Origin: Candidatus Multivoradales bacterium
Lineage (GTDB): Bacteria; Acidobacteriota; Thermoanaerobaculia; Multivoradales; Multivoraceae
Direction of reading: 5' to 3'
Assembly (NCBI GenBank): GCA_965223325.1
Contig: CBDCWI010000001.1
Coordinates: forward strand, 1,920,001-1,984,000
Length of the DNA stretch: 64,000 nt
Shown here: positions 1,749-13,939 of the stretch, one piece after another
Layout: each line of letters begins with the position of its first letter
Position numbering within the stretch: the first letter of the stretch is position 1
Translations under genes and position numbers: made by a program
The notes under the pieces: model-generated
Told to the model about the DNA's origin: nothing
Database searches by the model: none
Seen by the model: only the letters and a program-made list of their open reading frames with translations

Positions 1749-2252
1749 ATGAGCGACTCAGCCGCCACACTCTGCCTCCGCCCCGCCGAAGCGTCTGACA
1801 CGGCCCTCGTCCTCCGGTTCATTCGCGAACTGGCGGAGTACGAAAAGCTGCTCGACGAGGTGGTGGCAACCGAGGAGATGATCCGTGAGGCGCTCTTCGG
1901 CGACCACCCGACCATTGAGGTGACGATCGCTCTATGGCAAGGCGAACCGGCGGGCTTCGCGCTCTACTTCCACAACTTCTCGACTGTCCTGGGCAGGCAC
2001 GGCATCTACCTGGAAGACCTCTTCGTTCGGCCAGCGTTTCGGGGCCGGGGAATCGGCAAGGCGCTACTGGCGCATCTGGCACGCCTGGCGGTCGAACGCG
2101 GCTGCGGACGCCTGGAATGGGCGGTGCTCGACTGGAACGAACCGGCGATTGGTTTCTATCAGTCGATTGGCGCCCGCACGGTCGACGAATGGACGGCCTT
2201 CCGCCTGAGCGGCAAGGCACTCTCCGAACTCGCCGCAGAGCACCTCGCATGA
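1749..2252 (+). CDS. GNAT N-acetyltransferase (SSAT/diamine acetyltransferase-like)
   Basis: IRELAEYEK, YLEDLFVRPAFRGRGIGKALL acetyl-CoA motif, LDWNEPAIGFY. Stop overlaps the next start (ATGA). Confidence 0.9.
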   Translation: MSDSAATLCLRPAEASDTALVLRFIRELAEYEKLLDEVVATEEMIREALFGDHPTIEVTIALWQGEPAGFALYFHNFSTVLGRHGIYLEDLFVRPAFRGRGIGKALLAHLARLAVERGCGRLEWAVLDWNEPAIGFYQSIGARTVDEWTAFRLSGKALSELAAEHLA

Positions 2253-3124
2253 GCGAAGCGCCCTACGTCCGCTACATGGAACGAACCCGCGATTGGTATC
2301 GCGCCCTCGGCTACCAGGTGGACTACCGCTGGGCCGAGCGGCACGCACCGGAACTCACACGGCTTGCCCAGCCGCTCGCCGACACCGTCGTCGCCCTCGT
2401 CACCACGGCCAGCCTCGCAGCGCCCGAAGGCTGGAGTGAGGGGCGCCCGAGCCTCGGGAAGCGGGTATGGTCGATTCCCCTCGACCGACTCCCCGAGAAC
2501 CTCTTTACCGACGACACCAGCTGGGCGAAAGAATCGACCCACACGGACGATCGCGAGTCGTACCTGCCGCTCGCCCACCTGGAGCGCGCCGCCCTCGAGA
2601 ACCGCATCGGTTCGCTCGCCCCGCGGGTCCATGGCCTCCCCACCGAATACTCACATCGCGCAACCGAAGAACGCGACGCCCCCGAACTCCTCCTTCGCCT
2701 GCGAAGAGACGGAGCACAAGCCGCCCTCTTCGTGCCACTGTGACCGGTTTGCCACCAGACCGTGAGTCTGGCCGCCAGGTACCTGGAAGAACGGGGCATC
2801 GCAACGGTAGTAGCGAGCTCTGCTCGAGACATCACGGAGCACTGTGGAGCGCCGCGGGTCCTGTTCACCAATCACCCGTTGGGTAACCCCATCGGCAGTC
2901 CCTGGGATCGGGCCACGCAGAGGGAAAACACCCAGCGTGCGCTCTCGCTGCTCGAGTCTGCGGTCTCCCCCGGGGAGACTGTGCTCTCGCCGACTGAATG
3001 GCAGGGGAAAGCCAGCTGGCAGCAGGCGTACATGAGCCTCGACGGCGAGGACCCAGAAGAACTGCTCGAGCGCGGACGAGCCCGGCGGCGTTTGCGAGAC
3101 GAGGCCAACGGCCGCACGCGATGA
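2249..3124 (+). CDS. Selenoprotein of the glycine/sarcosine/betaine/D-proline reductase selenoprotein B family (UGA read as Sec, codon 165)
   Basis: ATG 2249 is in frame with TGA 2741-2743 and with ORF 2762..3124. Read-through gives [30 protein letters not shown], the UxxC signature of the GrdB/PrdB family. SECIS-like hairpin just downstream; ATGA overlaps at both ends. Confidence 0.88.
2744..2775 (+). promoter_or_regulatory. Candidate bacterial SECIS element
   Basis: Stem CCAGAC (2755-2760) / GTCTGG (2766-2771) closing loop CGTGA. The loop begins 17 nt after the UGA and has G at position 2, matching bacterial SECIS geometry. Confidence 0.7.
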
Positions 3125-4284
3125 TCCCCGAGAGCCCAGCGATCCCCGTCAGAACGAAGCTGTCCGCTGCCGAAGTGGCCTGGTTCAGCGCCCTGTGCTC
3201 AGACGACTACGAGTTCCTCGGGGTCCCTGATGGCAGACTGCGTAGCTCCTTCGCGCATTGCGCAGCGATCGTGCGTTCCGCCGACCGGCTTGGTTACGAC
3301 AACATCCTCCTGCCGAGCAGCTATCAGGTCGGCCAGGACCCACTCGTTTTTGCAGGCGCAGTCGCTCCGATGACCGAGCAGCTCTCCCTTCTGGCGGCAG
3401 TTCGTTGTGGTGAGGTGCACCCGCCCATGCTGGCGCGCGCGATTTCCACGCTCGACCATCTCCTCGAGGGTCGGCTGACGCTCAACATCATCTCTTCCGA
3501 CCTTCCGGGGGAAACGCTCGCGTCCGAAGCACGCTATCGCCGCTCGGCCGAAGTGATCGAGATTCTCCACCAGGCCTGGACCGCCGGGGCGATCGAGTTC
3601 CACGGTGAGTTCTACGACCTCGAGTTACCGACGACTGCACCGGTCGCGCCCTTCCAGCAGAACGGCGGTCCGCTCCTCTACTTCGGTGGCTACTCTGAAG
3701 CGGCGCGGGCCCTCTGTGCAAAACACTGCGACGTCTACCTCATGTGGCCCGATACCGAAGGCGGACTGGGCGCAACCATGCAGGACCTGGCCGAGCGCGC
3801 AGCAAAGTACGATCGCCAGCTCGACTTCGGACTGCGAATTCACGTCATTGTGCGCGAGACCGACGAAGCAGCGCGCCGGGCGGCAGATCGGCTGGTGTCG
3901 CGACTGGACGCCGAAGAAGGGTTGGCGATCAAGCAGCGCGCGCAAGACGGTGCTTCTGCCGGGGTGCTCCGCCAAGACGAACTGCGCAAGAAGAGCGACG
4001 ACGATTGGATCGAGCCCGAAGTGTGGAGCGGCATCGGTCGTGCGCGATCCGGCTGTGCAAGTGCCATTGTCGGTGACCCCGACACCGTGGCGCGCAAGCT
4101 CGAGCGCTACCTCGACCTGGGCATCCGCGCCTTCATCTTCTCCGGCTACCCCCACCTCGAAGAGTGCGAACTGTTCGCGCGCTATGTCCTCCCGAGGATT
4201 CCGCGCCTACGCCTCTCTGAGGTTCAGGGAAGGCGGCCCTCGAGCCCTCCTGAGACGCCCCTTACAACCGCCACGAGGCGCTAG
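3121..4284 (+). CDS. smoC: Luciferase-like FMN-dependent monooxygenase, sulfoquinovose monooxygenase (SmoC) type
   Basis: [56 protein letters not shown] and [13 protein letters not shown] closely match recalled Agrobacterium SmoC. True start is ATG 3121 (ATGA overlap), not 2998. Confidence 0.82.
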
Positions 4285-4300
4285 CCTTCAGAAGGTACCA

Positions 4301-5242
4301 ATGAGAAGAATTGCTCTTCACCGTAGCCAGACCGACTCTGGCGCCGAGCTATCACTTCCCGCCGTGACCTACGGCTGCTGGCGCCTGGCCGACGACCCCG
4401 CCGGAACAGAACCGGCGATCGTGCAGAAGAAGGTCGAGACCTGCCTCGAGCACGGCATCAGCGCCTTCGACCACGCCGACATCTACGGCGACTACCGGTG
4501 CGAGGCACTCTTCGGAGACCTCCTCGCGCAGCAACCACAGCTCCGCGAACAGATCCAGTTGATCAGCAAGACCGACATCGCACTCGTCTCGGCGTCGCGC
4601 CCCGAACATCGGGTCAAGCACTACGACACCTCGGCGCGGCACATCGAAGAGTCGGTCGAGCGCTCGCTCAGAAACCTTCGAGCCGAAACCCTGGACCTCC
4701 TCCTGCTGCACCGGCCCGACCCCCTGATGGACGCCGACGAGACGGCCCATGCCCTGCAGGCACTCTTCGAGAGCGGCAAGGTCACCCACTTCGGGGTCTC
4801 CAACTTCCCCTCGTCACAGTTCGAGCTCCTTCAGGCCCGCCTGGACCTGCCGCTGGTCACGAACCAGATCGAGCTGTCACTCCTCGAACACGCAGCATGC
4901 ACGAACGGCACCCTCGACTTCCTGGCGCAACACCGCATTGCACCGATGGCCTGGTCCCCTCTTGGCGGTGGACGCTTGTTTACGGGCTCCAGCGACCGAA
5001 TACGCGGCGTACGTTCGGTGCTCGACGCCCTGGCAGTGGAACGCGAGCTCGAGGTCTCCGACCGCTCGCGCATGCAACTCGCCCTGGCGTGGATCCTGCG
5101 CCTTCCTTCGCAGCCGATCGTGGTCATTGGAACCAACAAATCGCAACGCATCGCCGCCTCGGCTGAGGCTTCCGAGATCGAACTCAGTCGCCAGGAGTGG
5201 TTCCGGCTCTACGAAGCTGCTCTAGGCCAGGAAGTTCCGTGA
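4301..5242 (+). CDS. smoB: Aldo/keto reductase, 6-oxo-glucose reductase (SmoB) type
   Basis: FDHADIYGDY, RVKHYDTS, LLLHRPDPLMDADET, GVSNF, NQIELS, PMAWSPLGGG. Directly follows the smoC-like gene. Start ATG 4301 lies inside the longer track ORF. Confidence 0.78.
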   Translation: MRRIALHRSQTDSGAELSLPAVTYGCWRLADDPAGTEPAIVQKKVETCLEHGISAFDHADIYGDYRCEALFGDLLAQQPQLREQIQLISKTDIALVSASRPEHRVKHYDTSARHIEESVERSLRNLRAETLDLLLLHRPDPLMDADETAHALQALFESGKVTHFGVSNFPSSQFELLQARLDLPLVTNQIELSLLEHAACTNGTLDFLAQHRIAPMAWSPLGGGRLFTGSSDRIRGVRSVLDALAVERELEVSDRSRMQLALAWILRLPSQPIVVIGTNKSQRIAASAEASEIELSRQEWFRLYEAALGQEVP

Positions 5243-5294
5243 CTGGCAGATGACGGTTCCAGGCACTTCCTTCCAACAACCGGAAGTGGGCTAG

Positions 5295-7097
5295 ATGCTT
5301 CAAACCCTCGATCTGGTCGTCTTCTTCGCCGCTCTCGCTGCGGTGATGGGGATCGGCCTGTGGGCGGCCCGCAACGAAGACACGAGTGAGGATTTTTTCC
5401 TCGCCGGCCGCACCATTCGTTGGTGGGGTGTGGCCGGTTCGGTCTTTGGCTCGAACGTCAGCGCCAACCACCTTGTGGGAATGCTCGGCATTGGCTTCTC
5501 GATCGGTTTCGCCCAAAGCCATTTCGAACTCGGCGCCATTGCCGCCTTGATGCTCCTGGCCTACGGCTTCCTACCGGTCTACCGCAAACTCGGGGTCTAC
5601 ACCCTGTCGAGCTACCTCGGCCAGCGCTACGACGGTCGAAGTCAAACGCTCTATGCGCTCATTCTCCTGGTGGTTGCAGTCGTTCAGCTGACGGCCGGCT
5701 TCTACATCGGCTCGCGCTCACTCGGGCTCCTGCTCTCGGGCACCGTGCTCGAGCTGAGCTACGCCGTCGGAGTCGTCGCGCTGGTCATCGTGACCGCGAC
5801 CTACACGGTCGTCGGCGGGCTCAAAGCTGTCATCTACACCGATGTCATGCAGTCGATTCTGCTCTTGTTTGCCGGGGTCGGGATTGCGATCCTGACCTTC
5901 CAACAGCCGGAAGTGGGTGGCTGGCTGGGCATGATGGCGCACGACGGTGCCCGCCAGGTCGCTGAGCAGAAGATGCACCTCTACCTGCCGAGCTCGCACC
6001 CCGACTTGCCGTGGTCGGGAACGCTCTCGGGGCTTCTGCTCTTGCACTGCTTCTACTGGTCGACCAACCAGACCATCGTGCAGCGCACCCTCGCTGCACA
6101 CTCGGACCGCGACGCGCGCCTGGGCATTATCGTCGCCGGCTTTCTGAAGCTGCTCATTCCGTTCTTTGCGATCGCCGGCGGTGTGGCGGCGGCGCAGCTT
6201 TTCGAGATCCGCTTTCCCGATCGTCTGATCGACCCCGACGCGGCGACCCCAGAGCTCATTCGAACGGTCGTCCCGGCCGGTTACGGATTGGTAGGCATCG
6301 TGATGGCAGGGCTGTTGGGTGCCATTCTGTCGTCGATCGACTCGCTGGTGAACTCGGCCTCGACGCTTTTCACCTTCGACATCTACAAACGCTTTGTGAA
6401 ACCCGAGGCGGACGACAAGGAGTGTCTCCTGGTGGGCAAAGTGGTGCTCACCGTTCTTCTGCTCGTGTCGGCGACCCTCGCGCTCCTGACCTATGACCCC
6501 ACCGGTGGCGGCAACTTCTTCCTGCGGGTTTCGAGTCAGGCCGGCCATTTCACCCCCGGCCTGGTAACCGCCTTCGCGCTCGGCATGTTCTGGCGCGGCG
6601 CCAAGGCAAGGGGGGCCGCGGTTTCGATTGTGCTCGCACCCGTCTTTTCCTGGGGCATCGTTGCCGCCCACCATGCCTGGTTCGGCACCGTGCCCTGGAT
6701 CGCCTCGTTGCTCGGTAGTGACCTGAACTTCCTGCACCGCGTCCTGGCCACGGTGCTCTTTGCTGCCCTGGTTCACATCCTGGTGAGTCGCCTTTCTCCG
6801 AGCAGCAGCGATAGCGCGGTTGGCGAACGGTTCACCTTCTTCGCTCTCTCGGGTGCCGACCCTGTCCAGTTCAGCCGGCTCCTGGGAGTCCTCGTTGGGC
6901 TCGCGATCGCCTGGCTGGTACTCGGCATCACCGTCGATCGCGGCATGGTCTCGAACAGTTTCGCTGCTCTGGTCGCTGCCGCCACCGCCTGGATACCTTT
7001 CGCGCCCTATCTCGTTGGCCGGTCCCTTCGCGACGACCGTTGGTGGGCGGCCACCCTCTGTAGCGCCACCATGGCCATCATGTTCTTCTTTTTCTAG
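5295..7097 (+). CDS. Sodium:solute symporter (SSS/SLC5), probable sulfoquinovose/SQ-glycoside importer
   Basis: EDFFLAGR, YTVVGGLKAVIYTDVMQ, YWSTNQTIVQRTLAA, SSIDSLVNSASTLFTFDIY; many TM helices. Substrate inferred from context. Confidence 0.9.
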   Translation: MLQTLDLVVFFAALAAVMGIGLWAARNEDTSEDFFLAGRTIRWWGVAGSVFGSNVSANHLVGMLGIGFSIGFAQSHFELGAIAALMLLAYGFLPVYRKLGVYTLSSYLGQRYDGRSQTLYALILLVVAVVQLTAGFYIGSRSLGLLLSGTVLELSYAVGVVALVIVTATYTVVGGLKAVIYTDVMQSILLLFAGVGIAILTFQQPEVGGWLGMMAHDGARQVAEQKMHLYLPSSHPDLPWSGTLSGLLLLHCFYWSTNQTIVQRTLAAHSDRDARLGIIVAGFLKLLIPFFAIAGGVAAAQLFEIRFPDRLIDPDAATPELIRTVVPAGYGLVGIVMAGLLGAILSSIDSLVNSASTLFTFDIYKRFVKPEADDKECLLVGKVVLTVLLLVSATLALLTYDPTGGGNFFLRVSSQAGHFTPGLVTAFALGMFWRGAKARGAAVSIVLAPVFSWGIVAAHHAWFGTVPWIASLLGSDLNFLHRVLATVLFAALVHILVSRLSPSSSDSAVGERFTFFALSGADPVQFSRLLGVLVGLAIAWLVLGITVDRGMVSNSFAALVAAATAWIPFAPYLVGRSLRDDRWWAATLCSATMAIMFFFF

Positions 7098-8235
7098 CGC
7101 TGCGGACTGCCGCGTCTTCGAGTAGCTCCGACATCTCGACCGGGCGACCCAACTCGATCGATCGATGGGCCGCGCAACCAATCGCCACCGCCTGCGTCCC
7201 GTCTGCAACGCCGACTTCGACCGGCCCGTCGCCTGCGATTGCCATGAGGAAAGCGCGGTGCTGCCAGTAGGTCGCACCATGGTGGTGACCGGCGGCGAGT
7301 AGCCGTTCGTCGATGTCGATCGTCTCGCTCGTCACCCGATCCGGCCGCATGCCAACGAACCCATGTTTGTCCGTCGCTTGCATCGCGAGATCACGCCGGC
7401 CAATACGAACCGTCGAATCCGGTAGCAGGCACTCGAGTTTGCCGGCATCTCCGGTGACCGAGATCTCCTGTTCGTGAAGTGAGGCTTCGGCGAACATACA
7501 GAGGTCGAGTGACGCGCGGATGCCTCCGTCGAAATCGACGACGACAAACGCGTTGTCGAGAATGTCGGGCACCTCGCCGTCGTAGCGCTCGTCGAGATGG
7601 TTGACATCTTGCGCACCACTGGCGTAGACCCGCTGAGGTGCCGCTCCCGTGATGCGAGCCATCAAATCGAAGAAGTGGCAGCATTTCTCCACCAGCGTTC
7701 CGCCGGTGTTGCGATTGAAGCGGTTCCAGTCACCGACTTTGGGAAGAAACGGAAAGCGGTGCTCACGGATCGCCACCATGCGCACTCGTCCTACCGTGCC
7801 GGCGTCGACTTCTTGGATGAGCCGCGCCACCGGTGGCATGTAGCGGTACTCCATACCGATCCACACCACCCCGTCATGGCTCGCTGCCTTTTCTTCGACC
7901 ACCCGACAATCAGCCAGGGTCGTACACATCGGCTTCTCTACCAGCAGATGGAGCCCACTCCCCCACAACCCGTCCAGAACCTCGGCATGGGTGTGGTTTG
8001 GCGAGGCGATCACCACAGCATCGACCAGACCGGAGCGCGCCAGCTCGAGGTGATCCTCGAAAGAAACGGGCTCGGCCGTTGGGTTGAGTGACAGGTGCAG
8101 GTCTTCCGCCCACTTCCGCGACCGTGGATGCGGGTCGCAAATCGCGGTGACCTCGGCGCCAGGGAGCAGCGCGATGTTGCGCATGTGCTCGAGGCCCATG
8201 AGACCCGTTCCAACGATGCCGTAGCGTGTAGTCAT
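7078..8235 (-). CDS. Gfo/Idh/MocA oxidoreductase, probable NAD+-dependent sulfoquinovosidase (GH188-like)
   Basis: GIVGTGLMG Rossmann motif, EKPM, REHRFPFLPKVGDWNRFNRNTGGTLVEKCCHFFDLM. Convergent with the smoCB-SSS operon with a 20 bp overlap. Family is secure; SQase function is inferred. Confidence 0.75.
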   Translation of the reverse strand: MTTRYGIVGTGLMGLEHMRNIALLPGAEVTAICDPHPRSRKWAEDLHLSLNPTAEPVSFEDHLELARSGLVDAVVIASPNHTHAEVLDGLWGSGLHLLVEKPMCTTLADCRVVEEKAASHDGVVWIGMEYRYMPPVARLIQEVDAGTVGRVRMVAIREHRFPFLPKVGDWNRFNRNTGGTLVEKCCHFFDLMARITGAAPQRVYASGAQDVNHLDERYDGEVPDILDNAFVVVDFDGGIRASLDLCMFAEASLHEQEISVTGDAGKLECLLPDSTVRIGRRDLAMQATDKHGFVGMRPDRVTSETIDIDERLLAAGHHHGATYWQHRAFLMAIAGDGPVEVGVADGTQAVAIGCAAHRSIELGRPVEMSELLEDAAVRSARKRRT

Positions 8236-8351: not shown

Positions 8352-10349
8352 CTACAAACGCGACTCGACGTACTCGAGGCTCGCTTTCGCCCGCGGATCG
8401 TCGGGTGCAAGAGCAACCAGTTGGGTAAAAACCTCCTTGGCCTCACGCCAGCGCTCCTGACTCGCAAGCAGCACTCCGAGATCGGCGAGTGCAGGCAGGT
8501 AGCGGGCGTCGCGCGCGAGAACGCTGCGGAGCCCTTCTTCGGCGACGTCGAGATCGCGCCGCCCCATGTAGACGGTGGCGAGTTGGTAGAGGAGCTCGAT
8601 GTTGGCCTCGTCTCTCGCCAGGTTGTCGCGAGCGCTCTCGAGTGCCTCGTCCATTCTCTCGAGGGCCAGGTAGGTGCTGGTGCGAAGTGCCCGCATCGAC
8701 AGATCGCTCGGGTCAGCCTCGATGGCTAGCGGAACGAAGGTCGCCGCCTCGTCGAGGCGCCCGAGGTCAAACGACAGGCGTGCCAGGGCTCTCGTGTACA
8801 GGCCGGAGCCGCCGGAGATAGCGAACGCACGACGGTAGGCCTCGTAGGCTGGCTCGGGCTGGCCCGATTCTTCGTAGGCCACGGCGAGGAACTGCCAGGC
8901 GTCGAGCAGTCGCGGATGGCGGTTGACGGTTCGCGCCAGAAGTTGCACGGCGTCCTGCGCCCTTCCCAGCCGCAGACTGTCGATGCCTCGCTGCAGGGTC
9001 GCAAGTGACTCGATCTCCTGACGCGGGTCGGGCAGGTCGGTCGCTGGCAAAGTGGCTTCGCTGCTCAAGTAGCCGAGCGACAAGAGCGCCTCGCGATCTT
9101 CCTCTTCTGCGGCGCTGCTATCTCTAGCCTGGGGCGGCTCGATCGAGGCCTCCGCCAGGGCAGCTCGCAGAGGCTCTGCTCGCTGCCCACCGAGGTCGTT
9201 CTGCTCGCCCGGATCTACTGCGAGGTCGAAGAGCTCACCGTAGGCACCTTCGATCCAATGGAGGTCACCCTCGATTACCGAGGTCAGTCCATGCCATCCC
9301 AGGCGCAGCTGCGGATAGAACGTCTCGGCGAAGATCGGGCGCTGGGGATGTTCCGCGAGCTCGAGAAGAGTCGGCGCCGGGTTGCCGAGAGGGGCAGCAC
9401 CGCCAGGGGCCACGAGTGCGAGCAAGGTCCCAGGCACGTCGCTCAGTTGAGCAGGCTCGGTCACCGACTGGCCTCTGCGCTCGGCGCCCGGCAACTTGAC
9501 GATCAGCGGAACCTGAAGAGCCTCGCGGTGCAGCAGGATGCCGTGTTGGTCCTCGCCATGCTCGCCGAGACCTTCCCCGTGATCCGAGAGTAGAACGACG
9601 ATCGCCTCGTCGTAACGCTCGAGACGACGCAGCTCTGCCAAGAGCTCGCCCACCAGGGCATCGACCGCTGCGATCTCGCCGTCATAAGGGTGTGCGACCT
9701 GATCAAAAGGAGGAGGCGGCTCATACGGCGCGTGCGGCTCGTAGAAATGCACCATCAAAAAGAACGGCTCTTCGCCGAAACCGTTCAGTAACTCTCTGGC
9801 GCCCTCCAGCACCTCGCGACCATCGCGCTGGGTTTCAGCAGCGGTCGCACGCACGAGCTGCTCGATCTCGTCGTCGTAGAACTCGAAGCCCTGAGCGATT
9901 CCTGTCGCACGCCGCATGACGAAACTCGAAACCACCGCCGCCGTCCGGTAGCCCTCGGCCACCAGACGCTCAGCAAACGTCTCTATGTCTTCCGCCAGGC
10001 GAAAGCCCGAGTTGTCTCGCACCCCGTGTTGATGCGGCAGGAGGCCAGTCAAGAGCGACGCATGGGCCGGCAGAGTGAGTGGAATCGGGCTGTAGGCGCG
10101 CTCGAACAGCAGACTGTCGGCGCGCAATCGATCGATGGCCGGCGTGGCGACGCCATCGTAACCATAGACCGGCAGATGGTCGGAGCGCAGGGTATCGATT
10201 GAGATCAGGAGAATCGGCGGCTTTGTCCCAGCCACAGCCTCCGACCCGGGACTCTCCTGCGGCTCAGCTCCCTGACAGGTCAGTAGAAGGAAGCCGGCGC
10301 CGGCCGCCAGGAGAGCGTGTTGCCGTTTCGATGTCCACACGCTGTTCAT
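8352..10349 (-). CDS. Sulfatase-like (alkaline phosphatase superfamily) protein with C-terminal TPR repeats, probable lipoprotein
   Basis: LLISIDTLRSD, SPIPLTLPAHASLLTG, HFYEPHAPY, LSDHGEGLGEHGE, TPR-like helices, LLLTC lipobox-like signal. Start taken at ATG 10349. Confidence 0.85.
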   Translation of the reverse strand: MNSVWTSKRQHALLAAGAGFLLLTCQGAEPQESPGSEAVAGTKPPILLISIDTLRSDHLPVYGYDGVATPAIDRLRADSLLFERAYSPIPLTLPAHASLLTGLLPHQHGVRDNSGFRLAEDIETFAERLVAEGYRTAAVVSSFVMRRATGIAQGFEFYDDEIEQLVRATAAETQRDGREVLEGARELLNGFGEEPFFLMVHFYEPHAPYEPPPPFDQVAHPYDGEIAAVDALVGELLAELRRLERYDEAIVVLLSDHGEGLGEHGEDQHGILLHREALQVPLIVKLPGAERRGQSVTEPAQLSDVPGTLLALVAPGGAAPLGNPAPTLLELAEHPQRPIFAETFYPQLRLGWHGLTSVIEGDLHWIEGAYGELFDLAVDPGEQNDLGGQRAEPLRAALAEASIEPPQARDSSAAEEEDREALLSLGYLSSEATLPATDLPDPRQEIESLATLQRGIDSLRLGRAQDAVQLLARTVNRHPRLLDAWQFLAVAYEESGQPEPAYEAYRRAFAISGGSGLYTRALARLSFDLGRLDEAATFVPLAIEADPSDLSMRALRTSTYLALERMDEALESARDNLARDEANIELLYQLATVYMGRRDLDVAEEGLRSVLARDARYLPALADLGVLLASQERWREAKEVFTQLVALAPDDPRAKASLEYVESRL

Positions 10350-10513
10350 CAGCCTAAGTCTGCCGAAACGATCGAAACGAACGGCCCGACGGTACACGGC
10401 CCTGGGACGAGTCGCTGACTGCGATTGCACCGATCTCGAGCCCTTGATGTGAAACAAACGCCGTTTCGAGGCGTCCAGCACCTTGATCCCGTAAATCCGA
10501 GAGAGGAAGGTCC

Positions 10514-12949
10514 ATGAACGACCTCAAGTTCGCACTGCGTTCTCTGCGGCGTGCGCCCGGCGTCACGCTCATTCTGCTGCTCACCCTGGCCCTCGGCATC
10601 GGCGCCACCGGCGCCATCTGGAGCGTCATCGACGGCGTGATTCTCGAGCCGCTCCCCTATGAAGATCCCGAAGAGCTCGCGATGCTCTACTCCGAATTCC
10701 CCACTATGGACTTCGAGCGGTTCTGGATTTCACCGCCCGAGTTCATGGAATACGAAGAATGGACGCAGGCCTTCGAAGCCATTGCCGGCTACCGTGGTTT
10801 TGAGGTCTCTCTGGTCGGAAAAGATGAGCCGATGCGAGTGCGCGGGATGATGGCCACGGCCAGCCTCTTCGACGTCATCGGCACCAACCCGCAGATCGGG
10901 CGCCCGTTCAGTGCCGAAGAGGACAACCCCGACGGCGAACGAGTCGCGGTTATCGCCTACGAGCTCTGGCAACGCACCTTCGGAGGTGACGAAAGTGTGC
11001 TCGGCGAGGTCGTCGACATCGACGGCAATCCCACGACGATCATCGGCGTCATGCCCCGCGGGTTCGATCTCGACGACACCAAGCCGCAGGTATGGGTCCC
11101 GATGGGGCTCGATCGTTCGAACCGCTCGAACCGCGGTAGTCACTACCTGCGCGTTATCGGGCGTTTGAGCGATGGCACGAGTCTCGAAGCAGCGCGCACC
11201 GAAGCACAGTCGCTGGTCGAAGGCTGGGATGAACTCTCCCCGAACGACCATAACCCCGATCCTGAGTTTCACCCTTTTCGCATCGAACCACTCAAGCAGG
11301 AGATCGTGGGGGATACGCAGCCGGCGCTGATGGCGCTACTCGGCGCGGTGTCTTTCGTTCTCCTGATCGCCTGCGCCAATGTCGCCAATCTCCTGCTGGC
11401 CCGCTCCGAAGAGCGCCAACAGGAAATGGCAGTACGGGCCGCGATGGGCGCGTCGCGCTGGCGCCTGGTGCGCCAGGTGCTGACTGAGAGCGTGCTGTTA
11501 TCGGTAGTTGGTGGAGTGCTCGGTGTGGTGCTCGCCCACCAGGGTCTCAAGCTGCTCCTCGGAATCAGTCCGGAGGCGCTACCTCGCGCCAGCGCGGTGG
11601 AGCTCGACGGAACCGTCTTACTGTTCTCGGCCTTGGTCGCGGTCCTGGCGGGGGTTCTCTTTGGCATCGCACCGGCTCTCCAACTCAGCAGCCGACGGCT
11701 CGGAGCAGCTGTGCGTGAAGGTGGCAGACGTGCGACTGCCGGCGTTGCCGGGCGTGGTTTGCGTCGTGCGCTGGTCGTGGTCGAAATCGCGCTCGCCCTG
11801 GCACTCGTCGTCGGAGCCGGCTTGATGCTGCGCAGCTTCCAGTCTCTCTTGGAAGTGCACCCAGGCTTTGCGAGCTCTAACCTGATGTCCTTCGCCGTCG
11901 AGTTGCCCGACAGCCGCTACCCCGAGGCCGACGACCAGACGACCTTCATGACCCGATTGACCGAAACACTCGCTGGCACTCCTGGCATCACCGCGGTGGC
12001 AGCCAGCGACGAGATTCCGCCGGTCGCGACCCTGAACGCAAACGACACGGAGTTCGAAGGCATCGAACGTACACCGGACGGTCCGCCGCACAACACCGAC
12101 TACTGGTGGACGGTTACCCGCGGCTTCTTCGAGACCCTGGGGACGCGCATCGTCGACGGCCGCGTCTTCGGACCGGGAGACGGCCCGGGATCGAACCCGG
12201 TGGTGGTGATCAACGAAGCGACCGCCAAACGCTTCTACGGCGACACTCGTGCCGTCGGCCAACGCCTGCGGCCGCCCTTCGGTAGCGAGATCCCGTGGTT
12301 CACGATCATCGGGGTGGTCGAAGACATCAAACAGGCTGGCGTCGACGCCGAAGCCGGAACCCATCTCTTCTGGTCCTACGAGCAGCTGGCACAGCTCGGC
12401 TTCGCACCCAGCGAGATGTACTACGTCGTCGAGTCAACGCTCGAGGAAGACAGCCTCGCTGGAACCCTTCGGCAGGCGGTCTGGGCGATCGACCCGGCGC
12501 TGCCAGTCGCCGACATCCGCACCCTCGACACGGTGGTCGCCGACTCGCTCGCGCGGCCTCGACTCTTGACGGTGCTCCTCTCGCTCTTCGGCCTGGCGGC
12601 GTTGTTCCTCGCCGCCATCGGCATCTACGGTGTGCTGGCCCACAGCGTGGCGACCAGGGCGCAGGAGCTCGGGATCCGCATGGCGATGGGCGCCAACCAG
12701 AGGCGTATTCTCGGTCTGGTACTCGGTCAGGGCCTCAGCCTGGCCGCCGCTGGCCTCGCCCTCGGCATTCTTGCGTCGCTGGCACTACGCCGCGCACTCG
12801 ACTCGATGCTCTATGGCATCGGAGCGACTGACCCGATGAGCTGGGCGTTCGGCATTGGGTTCTTCGCTCTGGTTGCGGCGCTGGCCTGCCTGATTCCGGC
12901 CCTCCGCGCCACCCGCGTCGACCCGATCAGCGTGCTGCGCGCCGACTGA
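10514..12949 (+). CDS. MacB/FtsX-like duplicated ABC permease (ADOP family)
   Basis: MNDLKFALRSLRRAPG, LLIACANVANLLLAR, RAAMGASRWRLVRQVLTES, RATRVDPISVLRAD; 811 aa; GGAAGG RBS. Confidence 0.92.
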   Translation: MNDLKFALRSLRRAPGVTLILLLTLALGIGATGAIWSVIDGVILEPLPYEDPEELAMLYSEFPTMDFERFWISPPEFMEYEEWTQAFEAIAGYRGFEVSLVGKDEPMRVRGMMATASLFDVIGTNPQIGRPFSAEEDNPDGERVAVIAYELWQRTFGGDESVLGEVVDIDGNPTTIIGVMPRGFDLDDTKPQVWVPMGLDRSNRSNRGSHYLRVIGRLSDGTSLEAARTEAQSLVEGWDELSPNDHNPDPEFHPFRIEPLKQEIVGDTQPALMALLGAVSFVLLIACANVANLLLARSEERQQEMAVRAAMGASRWRLVRQVLTESVLLSVVGGVLGVVLAHQGLKLLLGISPEALPRASAVELDGTVLLFSALVAVLAGVLFGIAPALQLSSRRLGAAVREGGRRATAGVAGRGLRRALVVVEIALALALVVGAGLMLRSFQSLLEVHPGFASSNLMSFAVELPDSRYPEADDQTTFMTRLTETLAGTPGITAVAASDEIPPVATLNANDTEFEGIERTPDGPPHNTDYWWTVTRGFFETLGTRIVDGRVFGPGDGPGSNPVVVINEATAKRFYGDTRAVGQRLRPPFGSEIPWFTIIGVVEDIKQAGVDAEAGTHLFWSYEQLAQLGFAPSEMYYVVESTLEEDSLAGTLRQAVWAIDPALPVADIRTLDTVVADSLARPRLLTVLLSLFGLAALFLAAIGIYGVLAHSVATRAQELGIRMAMGANQRRILGLVLGQGLSLAAAGLALGILASLALRRALDSMLYGIGATDPMSWAFGIGFFALVAALACLIPALRATRVDPISVLRAD

Positions 12950-13033: not shown

Positions 13034-13939
13034 ATGAGCAACGCACTGGAACACCCTGGAAGACTCGGCGTCTGGACGTGGATCGACGCCTTCTCCTCTG
13101 AACAAGCCGCGGACTTTGCCAAGCAACTCGAAACGTGGGGCTACTCCACCCTTTGGATCCCCGAAGCCGTCGGGCGTGATCCCTTCGCCCTGATCGGCTA
13201 TCTGGCAGGCCAGACCGAAACTCTCAACTTCGCCACCGGCATCGCCAACATCTACGCCCGTGACCACGTCACGATGAAGGCGATTCATCAGACTCTTTCC
13301 GAGATGCTGCCAGGCCGTTTCATTCTCGGTCTGGGCGTCTCGCACCCACATCTGGTTTCGCGCCTGCGCGGGCACGAGTGGAAGAAACCAATTCCCAAGA
13401 TGCGTGGCTACCTGGAAGCGATGAAGGGTGCGATCTATCACGGGCCGAAGCCTGAGCTCGAAGCTCCCATCGTGATCGCAGCGTTACGTCCGCTGATGAT
13501 GGGGCTCGCGCGCGATCATGTGCGCGGTGCCCATCCCTACCTGGTGACTCCAGAACATACCCAGCGCGCGAGAGAAATCCTCGGTGACGGCCCGTGGTTG
13601 TGCCCGGAACAGAAGGTGATTCTCGAAACTGACGCCGAAACCGCACGAGGCGTTGCGCGCGGCCAACTGACGCCCTACCTGCGGGCGCCCAACTACCAGA
13701 ACAATCTTCGCGAGATCGGCTTCGAGGACAGCGACTGGCAAGACGGAAAGGCGAGCGATCGCCTGATCGACGCGCTCGTCGCCTGGGGCGATGTCGACAC
13801 TATTCGCGAACGCATCGAGGCGCACTGGAGTGCCGGCGCCGACCATGTTTCGATCCAGCCGTTCCGTCCCGACGGAGCTCCCGGGCCCGACATGAAAGCA
13901 CTCGAAGTGTTGGCACCGGCTACCGAGCGTGCGAGCTAG
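13034..13939 (+). CDS. LLM-class oxidoreductase, probable F420-dependent (TIGR03620/MSMEG_4141-like)
   Basis: GYSTLWIPEAVGRDPF, ATGIANIYARD, GRFILGLGVSH, GAHPYLVTPEHT, AGADHVSIQ. Confidence 0.8.
   Translation: MSNALEHPGRLGVWTWIDAFSSEQAADFAKQLETWGYSTLWIPEAVGRDPFALIGYLAGQTETLNFATGIANIYARDHVTMKAIHQTLSEMLPGRFILGLGVSHPHLVSRLRGHEWKKPIPKMRGYLEAMKGAIYHGPKPELEAPIVIAALRPLMMGLARDHVRGAHPYLVTPEHTQRAREILGDGPWLCPEQKVILETDAETARGVARGQLTPYLRAPNYQNNLREIGFEDSDWQDGKASDRLIDALVAWGDVDTIRERIEAHWSAGADHVSIQPFRPDGAPGPDMKALEVLAPATERAS

Follow-up and report, generated by a model that had tools for sequence, protein, structure and literature searches.

A probable sulfoquinovose monooxygenase (sulfo-SMO) cluster with a GH188-type sulfoquinovosidase and a candidate SGLT-like importer in a probable acidobacterium

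Sulfoquinovose (SQ) is a sulfosugar of plants and algae; the bacteria that degrade it, and the routes by which it enters their cells, are still being mapped. Both questions are raised by a locus in a 64,000 bp stretch of DNA, here called the window, from the assembly of a Candidatus Multivoradales bacterium (GCA_965223325.1, contig CBDCWI010000001.1, positions 1,920,001 to 1,984,000). Do its genes for a luciferase-like monooxygenase (LLM), an aldo-keto reductase (AKR), a sodium:solute symporter (SSS) and a convergently transcribed Gfo/Idh/MocA protein make up an SQ pathway, and is the symporter the way in? A first-pass annotation had placed these four genes at 3121–8235 and read them as an SQ catabolism cluster. 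All four were found there, 3121 being the A of the ATG of the first gene and 8235 the first base of the start codon of the last, which is on the minus strand. The functional reading also held, as the assignments to SmoC, GH188 and SmoB survived profile and sequence comparisons. We consider it highly probable that the locus is a sulfo-SMO (SQ monooxygenase) cluster for SQ catabolism, carried by a genome that is probably acidobacterial, and that it serves to import SQ and to desulfonate it to glucose.

The first gene, smoC (3121–4284, plus strand), encodes a 387 aa protein that includes a Pfam Bac_luciferase domain (PF00296, 186 bits, residues 43–336). All PDB comparisons reported here are HMMER (phmmer) bit scores and printed alignments against all PDB sequences. 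The top matches of the smoC product were the SQ monooxygenases 7OLF (465.6 bits, E 1.8e-138) and 7OH2 (453.9 bits), which come from Sharma et al. 2022 (PMC8795539). Sulfonate monooxygenases scored far lower (MsuD 7JV3, 233.8 bits; Escherichia coli SsuD 1M41, 195 bits; SfnG, 98.8 bits), although SsuD and MsuD share with the smoC product the LLM fold, the two-component FMNH2 mechanism and the sulfonate-site residues. The best solved relatives are therefore SmoC proteins and not SsuD or MsuD; best matches to SsuD or other LLMs were what the first-pass annotation had itself named as speaking against its reading. The residues of RoSmoC that gate the FMN phosphate (Tyr136 and Ser189) and those of its sulfonate site (Trp206, Arg236, His238, Tyr341 and His343) are all kept, as Y139, S192, W209, R239, H241, Y343 and H345. 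As these residues are common to MsuD and SsuD, they point to a working sulfonate monooxygenase and not to SQ specificity.

A quick maximum-likelihood tree was built from 89 rows, namely the window protein, those of five relatives in its family and of 80 loci in other species, and three SsuD-like outgroups, with rows of fewer than 330 aligned residues left out. The window protein forms a clade with those of four family relatives, G003, G006, G010 and G015 (SH-aLRT 100), which lies beside or within the Chloroflexota SmoC proteins and has a Pseudomonadota SmoC clade as its neighbour (97). The SsuD-like rows are on a very long separate branch, and the SmoC family, 55–75% identical across phyla, is a tight clade. 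Orthologues sharing 55–64% identity with the window protein were found in bins assigned to Chloroflexota (12 tree rows), Bacteroidota (56), Armatimonadota/Abditibacteriota (2) and Pseudomonadota (8). These comparisons support the prediction that the smoC product is an SQ monooxygenase orthologue.

At the other end of the cluster, sqgA (7078–8235, minus strand) encodes a 385 aa Gfo/Idh/MocA protein with PF01408 and PF02894 domains. The first-pass annotation had suggested a GH188-type sulfoquinovosidase (SQase), and the three best matches of this protein are indeed SqgA enzymes: ArSqgA 8QC3 (392.1 bits, E 2.6e-116), FlSqgA 8QC2 (376.6 bits) and RdSqgA 8ZN9 (339.5 bits). The next PDB match, 3EZY, reached only 83.8 bits, and inositol dehydrogenases, the competing assignment, at most 55 bits. 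ArSqgA (8QC3/5/6) and FlSqgA (8QC2/8) are the founding GH188 NAD+-dependent SQases described by Kaur et al. 2023 (PMC10755693), and the paper in which RdSqgA was solved (Nat Commun 2025, PMC12780224) has 8ZN9 as its sole deposited structure. In ArSqgA, the residues named for SQ contact and NAD+ chemistry are Lys107, Tyr136, Glu189, His193 and His321, and the sulfonate is held by the triad Arg166, Leu170 and Lys172 (PMC10755693). All eight are kept in the window SqgA, as K101, Y130, E183, H187 and H318, and as R160, L164 and K166, respectively.

ArSqgA and FlSqgA, the closest solved relatives, thus resemble the window protein both in these named residues and in a fold of Rossmann and alpha/beta parts. 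They differ from it in their hosts, which are sulfo-EMP organisms (Arthrobacter) or Flavobacterium, and in that the function of the window SqgA is predicted from its sequence. The GxGxxG motif of the Rossmann domain stands at the very N-terminus and leaves no room for a signal peptide, and a cytoplasmic location is therefore expected. The sqgA gene is present in a single copy in the genome, which is 98.2% complete and in which no match to GH31 (PF01055) was found. We conclude that its product is a predicted NAD+-dependent SQase orthologue, a view that the comparisons support.

The second gene encodes a 313 aa AKR (4301–5242, plus strand; PF00248, 171 bits), for which a SmoB-type function had been claimed. 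It matches SmoB (7BBY/7BBZ) at 275.5 bits. It scores as well against YdhF-type AKRs (4R9O, 278.6 bits; 7TWZ, 272.8 bits; YdhF 1OG6, 270.9 bits), and as the scores are equal they do not by themselves place the protein. Besides the catalytic tetrad (D57/Y62/K90/H137), the two residues that bind glucose in SmoB, Arg152 and Lys120, recur in the AKR as R138 and K106. The ligands of the NADPH 2'-phosphate, Thr284, Asn285 and Arg289, are kept as T278, N279 and R283, together with two further NADPH ligands (W218 and F227). In an alignment read by eye, the YdhF-type 4R9O differs at the positions of SmoB Lys120 and Thr284/Asn285. SmoB-like AKR genes also stand beside smoC in one family relative (G003, 53% identity), in a metagenome contig (L102, 51%) and in 33 of the 80 SmoC loci of other phyla. 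Judged from its ligand residues and gene context, and with scores that do not separate SmoB from YdhF proteins, the AKR is a probable NADPH-dependent 6-oxo-glucose reductase of SmoB type.

The cluster was compared with 24 other genomes of the same family, 16 of the same order and 400 further genomes sampled evenly across the phylum. Five of the 24 family genomes (G003, G006, G010, G013 and G015) encode SmoC orthologues that are 55–74% identical to the window protein. The same-genus genome G001 is not among them; its DNA is approximately 65–76% identical in short patches, and no collinear region was found. SmoC was also found in two genomes of the phylum sample (G138 and G403, of one genus), there with neither an SSS nor an SqgA orthologue. 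While the contig of G015 stops at smoC and that of G013 is only 5.9 kb, smoC, the SSS gene and sqgA are adjacent in all three family relatives that have long enough contigs (G003, G006 and G010) and in metagenome contig L102. The arrangement varies. L102 repeats the window order smoC-smoB-SSS followed by a convergent sqgA, and the order in G003 is sqgA-smoC-smoB-SSS with all genes co-directional. In G006 and G010, smoC-SSS is followed by a convergent sqgA, after which G006 has another AKR gene and a gene for a TonB-dependent receptor. The grouping is not due to chance. The SSS proteins of these four loci are 66–70% identical to that of the window (66–67% in L102), and as the link of this SSS subclade (at least 66% identity) to smoC and sqgA survives rearrangement, it argues for function and not for inherited order alone.

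Two features of the relatives' loci should be recorded here. The TonB-dependent receptor gene of G006 (locus L010, 14392–16806), directly after the sqgA-AKR pair, may provide the outer-membrane uptake step for SQ glycosides. The SmoC of G013 (locus L013, contig C1048), which is 55% identical to that of the window, groups in the tree with Pseudomonadota (Paracoccaceae and the like) and apart from its own family, and may reflect bin contamination or a separate transfer.

Is the symporter, then, the importer? It is a 600 aa protein (5295–7097, plus strand) that scores well above the cut-offs of PF00474 (214.3 bits, cut-off 22.8) and TIGR00813 (277.7 bits, cut-off 184). Among solved proteins, carriers of sugars match it best (vSGLT 2XQ2, 221.9 bits; SGLT1 of humans, 204 bits); SiaT (97 bits) and carriers of iodide, choline and vitamins (at most 63 bits) are weaker matches. 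With vSGLT (2XQ2/3DH4) and human SGLT1/2 it shares the family, the sugar-carrying branch, the Ala/Ser/Ser of the Na2 site and the equivalent of K294, while the sugar-pocket positions differ from those of vSGLT. The vSGLT residues A62, I65, A361, S364 and S365, which we take to form the Na2 site, with the first two binding through backbone atoms, align with G52, V55, A343, S346 and S347, and the Na2-site positions are kept. The equivalent of K294 is K285. We likewise presume sugar-pocket roles for vSGLT Q69, N260, Y426 and Q428, in a numbering that agrees with the alignment. All four are changed (Q69 to H59, N260 to H251, Y426 to R411 and Q428 to S413).

Two of the four changes follow the SQ genes. 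R411 and S413 are present in all five of the close SMO-linked SSS orthologues. Of the other rows, 11 are aligned at the R411 position, and none of these has an arginine, although two have lysine; two further rows are unaligned at this position. R411 is a candidate sulfonate ligand for the SMO-linked SSS subclade only. In L067, from a Bacteroidota bin, the SSS encoded beside smoC is only distantly related and has Tyr/Gln at the R411/S413 positions. His59 and His251 were considered as SQ-specific residues and rejected, as they also occur in relatives unlinked to SQ genes.

The place of the SSS in the general SGLT/vSGLT sugar branch speaks for an alternative in which the enzymes act as described but the SSS carries another sugar, such as glucose or galactose, and SQ enters by other means. 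A metagenome scan with the SSS as query returned 32 loci, of which L102 is the closest, and in the 27 others with an SSS match (26–54% identity) no SQ gene was present in the locus DNA examined. Among the 80 SmoC loci of other phyla, just three include any SSS. Set against this, the 66–70% identical orthologues adjoin smoC and sqgA in four of four loci although the gene order varies, and no other transporter is conserved in the smoC-SSS-sqgA loci. In L041 and L067, both from Bacteroidota bins, a different SSS (31–33% identity) directly adjoins smoC, which suggests independent, repeated recruitment of SSS carriers into SMO clusters. In addition, a cytoplasmic SqgA would require an importer for glycosides. 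On balance, we regard a carrier of some other sugar as unlikely. The claim that the SSS belongs to the SQ cluster is borne out by this syntenic tie, and from its position the SSS is likely an importer of SQ or SQ-glycerol.

Three metagenome loci bear on the wider subfamily. In L103, L116 and L121, SSS homologues that are 40–46% identical to the window protein adjoin sulfatase genes, and L103 also has genes for enolase-superfamily dehydratases and an AKR. The wider SSS subfamily may serve in the uptake of sugars released from sulfated glycans.

Taken as an SQ pathway, the cluster would work as follows. SQ-glycerol, and perhaps free SQ, would enter through the SGLT-like Na+-coupled symporter. 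Cytoplasmic SqgA, to judge from orthology and its conserved residues, would then remove the aglycone by NAD+-dependent oxidation, elimination, hydration and reduction. By orthology, SmoC with FMNH2 and O2 would cut the C–S bond to give sulfite and 6-oxo-glucose, and homology and context suggest that the SmoB-like AKR would reduce the latter to glucose with NADPH. Glucokinase would feed this glucose into central metabolism. The genome encodes one glucokinase and has two sulfite-oxidase-type molybdoenzyme domains, and on paper the SQ pathway could be completed from its content. FMNH2 would have to come in trans, for which the only candidate found is an HpaC-type flavin reductase encoded on contig C2.

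Might the substrate be something other than SQ? A cluster that targets a related sulfosugar or glycoside, such as sulfofucose or another 6-sulfo-hexoside, could be proposed, since the residues that set the SQ specificity of SmoC are not established, characterised enzymes share no more than about 60% identity with the SmoC and SqgA of the window, and other sulfosugar pathways have been reported to exist (PMC12421959). However, SqgA keeps every residue that contacts the SQ hydroxyls and sulfonate in the ArSqgA-SQ complex, characterised SmoC enzymes are strictly SQ-specific, and the SmoC family is a tight clade; we consider a different sulfosugar improbable. Least credible of all is an ordinary assemblage in which a sulfur-scavenging SsuD and an inositol dehydrogenase stand beside an AKR and a transporter unrelated to them, because the best-named NCBIfam models, SsuD for the smoC product (256.8 bits) and IolG for the sqgA product (124.2 bits), score far under their equivalog cut-offs of 518 and 355, PDB bit scores, about two to five times higher for SmoC and SqgA, contradict it, a separate, more SsuD-like LLM (315 bits) is encoded elsewhere in the genome, and synteny with SQ genes is conserved.

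Several observations nevertheless weigh against an SQ catabolism cluster. SmoC is missing from the same-genus genome G001 and from 19 of the 24 family genomes, and the trait is therefore patchy; none of the 16 same-order genomes has it either (best match 32%). No complex of SmoC with SQ has been obtained, and as its specificity residues are not established, the identity of the substrate rests on orthology and context. The AKR is by score indistinguishable from YdhF-type AKRs of unassigned function, and G010 has no SmoB-like AKR gene within 10 kb of its cluster. The substrate of the symporter is read only from its position, and relatives sharing 40–54% identity with it are found in unrelated contexts. 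Finally, the window cluster encodes neither a regulator nor a flavin reductase, nor do the loci of the relatives (none of five for the reductase), and no regulator is conserved near the smoC-SSS-sqgA module in the family.

As for the flavin reductase, the genome has a single gene of the HpaC type (PF01613), which neighbours genes for an aminotransferase and a transposase-like protein on contig C2, and no PF03358 (SsuE-type) reductase was found in it. Of the 80 SmoC loci of other phyla, 15 encode a homologue of this HpaC-type reductase, at 32–42% identity, adjoining smoC; these come only from Chloroflexota or Pseudomonadota, and the remaining 65 had no HpaC-type reductase in the locus DNA examined. 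As HpaC-type homologues accompany so few of the SmoC loci, the absence of a reductase from the cluster is common and supply of FMNH2 in trans is plausible.

Comparison with characterised systems separates what is shared from what is particular to the window. With the smoA-I cluster of Agrobacterium tumefaciens C58, as described by Sharma et al. 2022 (PMC8795539), it has in common SmoC (465 bits to 7OLF), the SmoB AKR (275 bits) and the chemistry from SQ to sulfite and 6-oxo-glucose and on to glucose. The Agrobacterium cluster uses an ABC importer with the binding protein SmoF, the GH31 SQase SmoI and the in-cluster flavin reductase SmoA, whereas the window cluster has a candidate SSS importer, a GH188 SQase and no in-cluster reductase, and GH31 is missing from it. 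The sulfo-SMO clusters of the Roseobacter clade (PMC10755693; PMC12780224) are closer, in that SmoC and SmoB are combined with the GH188 SqgA and GH31 is missing. Roseobacter denitrificans differs in its importer, a TRAP system whose binding protein is of the DctP type (PMC12780224), and the Paracoccaceae loci that we examined carry an HpaC-type reductase, which the window cluster does not.

The first-pass annotation had presented the locus as a variant cluster outside Proteobacteria with a GH188 enzyme. All of these elements are present, but not all are new. Replacement of GH31 by GH188 in sulfo-SMO clusters has been described as near-universal in the Roseobacter clade by Kaur et al. 2023 (PMC10755693), whose supplementary GH188 list includes entries labelled Acidobacteria. 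A 2026 survey reported sulfo-SMO clusters in Actinomycetota and Spirochaetota, and its supplement lists Bacteroidota; a term search of that supplement found no Acidobacteri*. A position outside Proteobacteria is thus correct but not new, given these published clusters and the SmoC orthologues in Chloroflexota, Bacteroidota and Armatimonadota bins. In its chemistry, and in three of its four proteins, the cluster corresponds to the known sulfo-SMO pathway (Sharma et al. 2022, PMC8795539), and the enzymology is not new.

What does appear to be new is the likely role of an SGLT-like SSS as an importer of SQ or SQ-glycerol, the host, which is probably acidobacterial, and the absence of a flavin reductase from the cluster. 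The SQ importers described in the literature accessible to us are of the ABC (Agrobacterium), TRAP (R. denitrificans) and MFS/GPH types, with a mention of unspecified 'other (non-ABC) transporter systems' in Sharma et al. 2022 (PMC8795539). A full-text literature search, which does not cover published gene-map figures (Sharma Fig. 5; Kaur 5c and S17), found nothing that links SQ or sulfosugars to a sodium:solute symporter, and neither PF00474 nor 'symporter' appears in the accessible supplements of Kaur et al. 2023 (PMC10755693). Nor did a search for sulfoquinovose together with Acidobacteri* find work on an acidobacterial SQ pathway among the texts accessible to it. The locus therefore adds a probably acidobacterial lineage to the sulfo-SMO route, which is one of complete mineralisation, and its SSS points to a further type of importer in addition to those of Agrobacterium (ABC) and Roseobacter (TRAP).

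A bolder reading, which we hold to be evenly poised between right and wrong, is that the SSS is the first SGLT-like Na+-coupled importer of a sulfonated sugar (SQ-glycerol or SQ), in which R411 and S413 replace the Tyr and Gln of vSGLT and R411 reads the sulfonate, and that a compact smoC-(smoB)-SSS-sqgA module, which can do without a binding protein or a flavin reductase of its own, is the sulfo-SMO form of one acidobacterial family and escapes the cut-offs of ocean surveys. The cut-offs on identity to Roseobacter proteins used in an ocean survey were 60% for SmoC and 54% for SqgA. As the window proteins are 57–59% (SmoC) and 46–51% (SqgA) identical to those of Paracoccaceae, surveys with these cut-offs would probably miss the window cluster. 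If the bolder reading is right, such degraders go uncounted in ocean surveys.

That the host is a probable acidobacterium, as had been proposed, follows from its permeases. In the window, 10514–12949 (plus strand) encodes a duplicated permease of the ADOP family (909.5 bits, cut-off 622), a family that we take to be defined on Acidobacteria. Paralogous ADOP frames over the curated cut-off number 36 and are spread across both contigs, whereas none was found in 14 control genomes.

The layout of the cluster is compact. Gaps of 16 bp and 52 bp separate smoC from the AKR gene and the AKR gene from the SSS gene, the AKR gene is preceded by an AGAAGG ribosome-binding site, and the 3' ends of the convergent SSS and sqgA genes overlap by 20 bp. 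The G+C content is 62–65% throughout, similar to that of the genome (64%). A promoter scan returned 0 promoter-like sites, and of the terminator-like sites (10 vs 5.4 expected) none is placed at a gene boundary so as to define an operon. Upstream, genes for a GNAT acetyltransferase (1749–2252, plus strand; PF00583, 78 bits) and a PrdB-like protein (2249–3124, plus strand) form with smoC, smoB and the SSS gene one tightly packed co-directional string, with ATGA stop/start overlaps at the GNAT/PrdB-like and PrdB-like/smoC junctions. Both were rejected as members of the module, as they are absent beside smoC in the relatives, in the 80 loci of other phyla and in the metagenome loci.

On the other side, directly upstream of sqgA and separated from it by 116 bp, is a gene for a sulfatase fold fused to C-terminal TPR repeats (8352–10481, minus strand). 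This gene and a nearby carboxylesterase gene were rejected as partners in sulfolipid processing because they are not conserved beside the cluster, with only a 34% partial match in L011. Further along the window, 13034–13939 (plus strand) encodes a second LLM of the F420-dependent TIGR03620 family (289.7 bits, cut-off 219.8), which is unrelated to SmoC.

The PrdB-like gene is of interest in its own right. Its product resembles the selenoprotein B family of D-proline reductase (59 bits against TIGR04483, under the cut-off), and an in-frame TGA at 2741–2743 falls in the motif VPL-U-PVCHQT. A homologue in the same-genus genome G001 (49% identity over 275 aa) shares this TGA codon, and the sequence is conserved to either side of it. 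Downstream of the TGA, both genes have the identical hairpin CCAGAC-CGTGA-GTCTGG, of ordinary energy (z -0.22). The genome also has a tRNA-Sec and a SelB domain. The gene probably encodes a selenoprotein that ordinary gene calling would split. Lastly, contig C1 (2.14 Mb), which contains the window and a class I lysyl-tRNA synthetase gene, has three tRNA genes, and contig C2 (4.55 Mb) has 48; C1 may represent a second chromosome or a chromid, or the division into two contigs may stem from the assembly.

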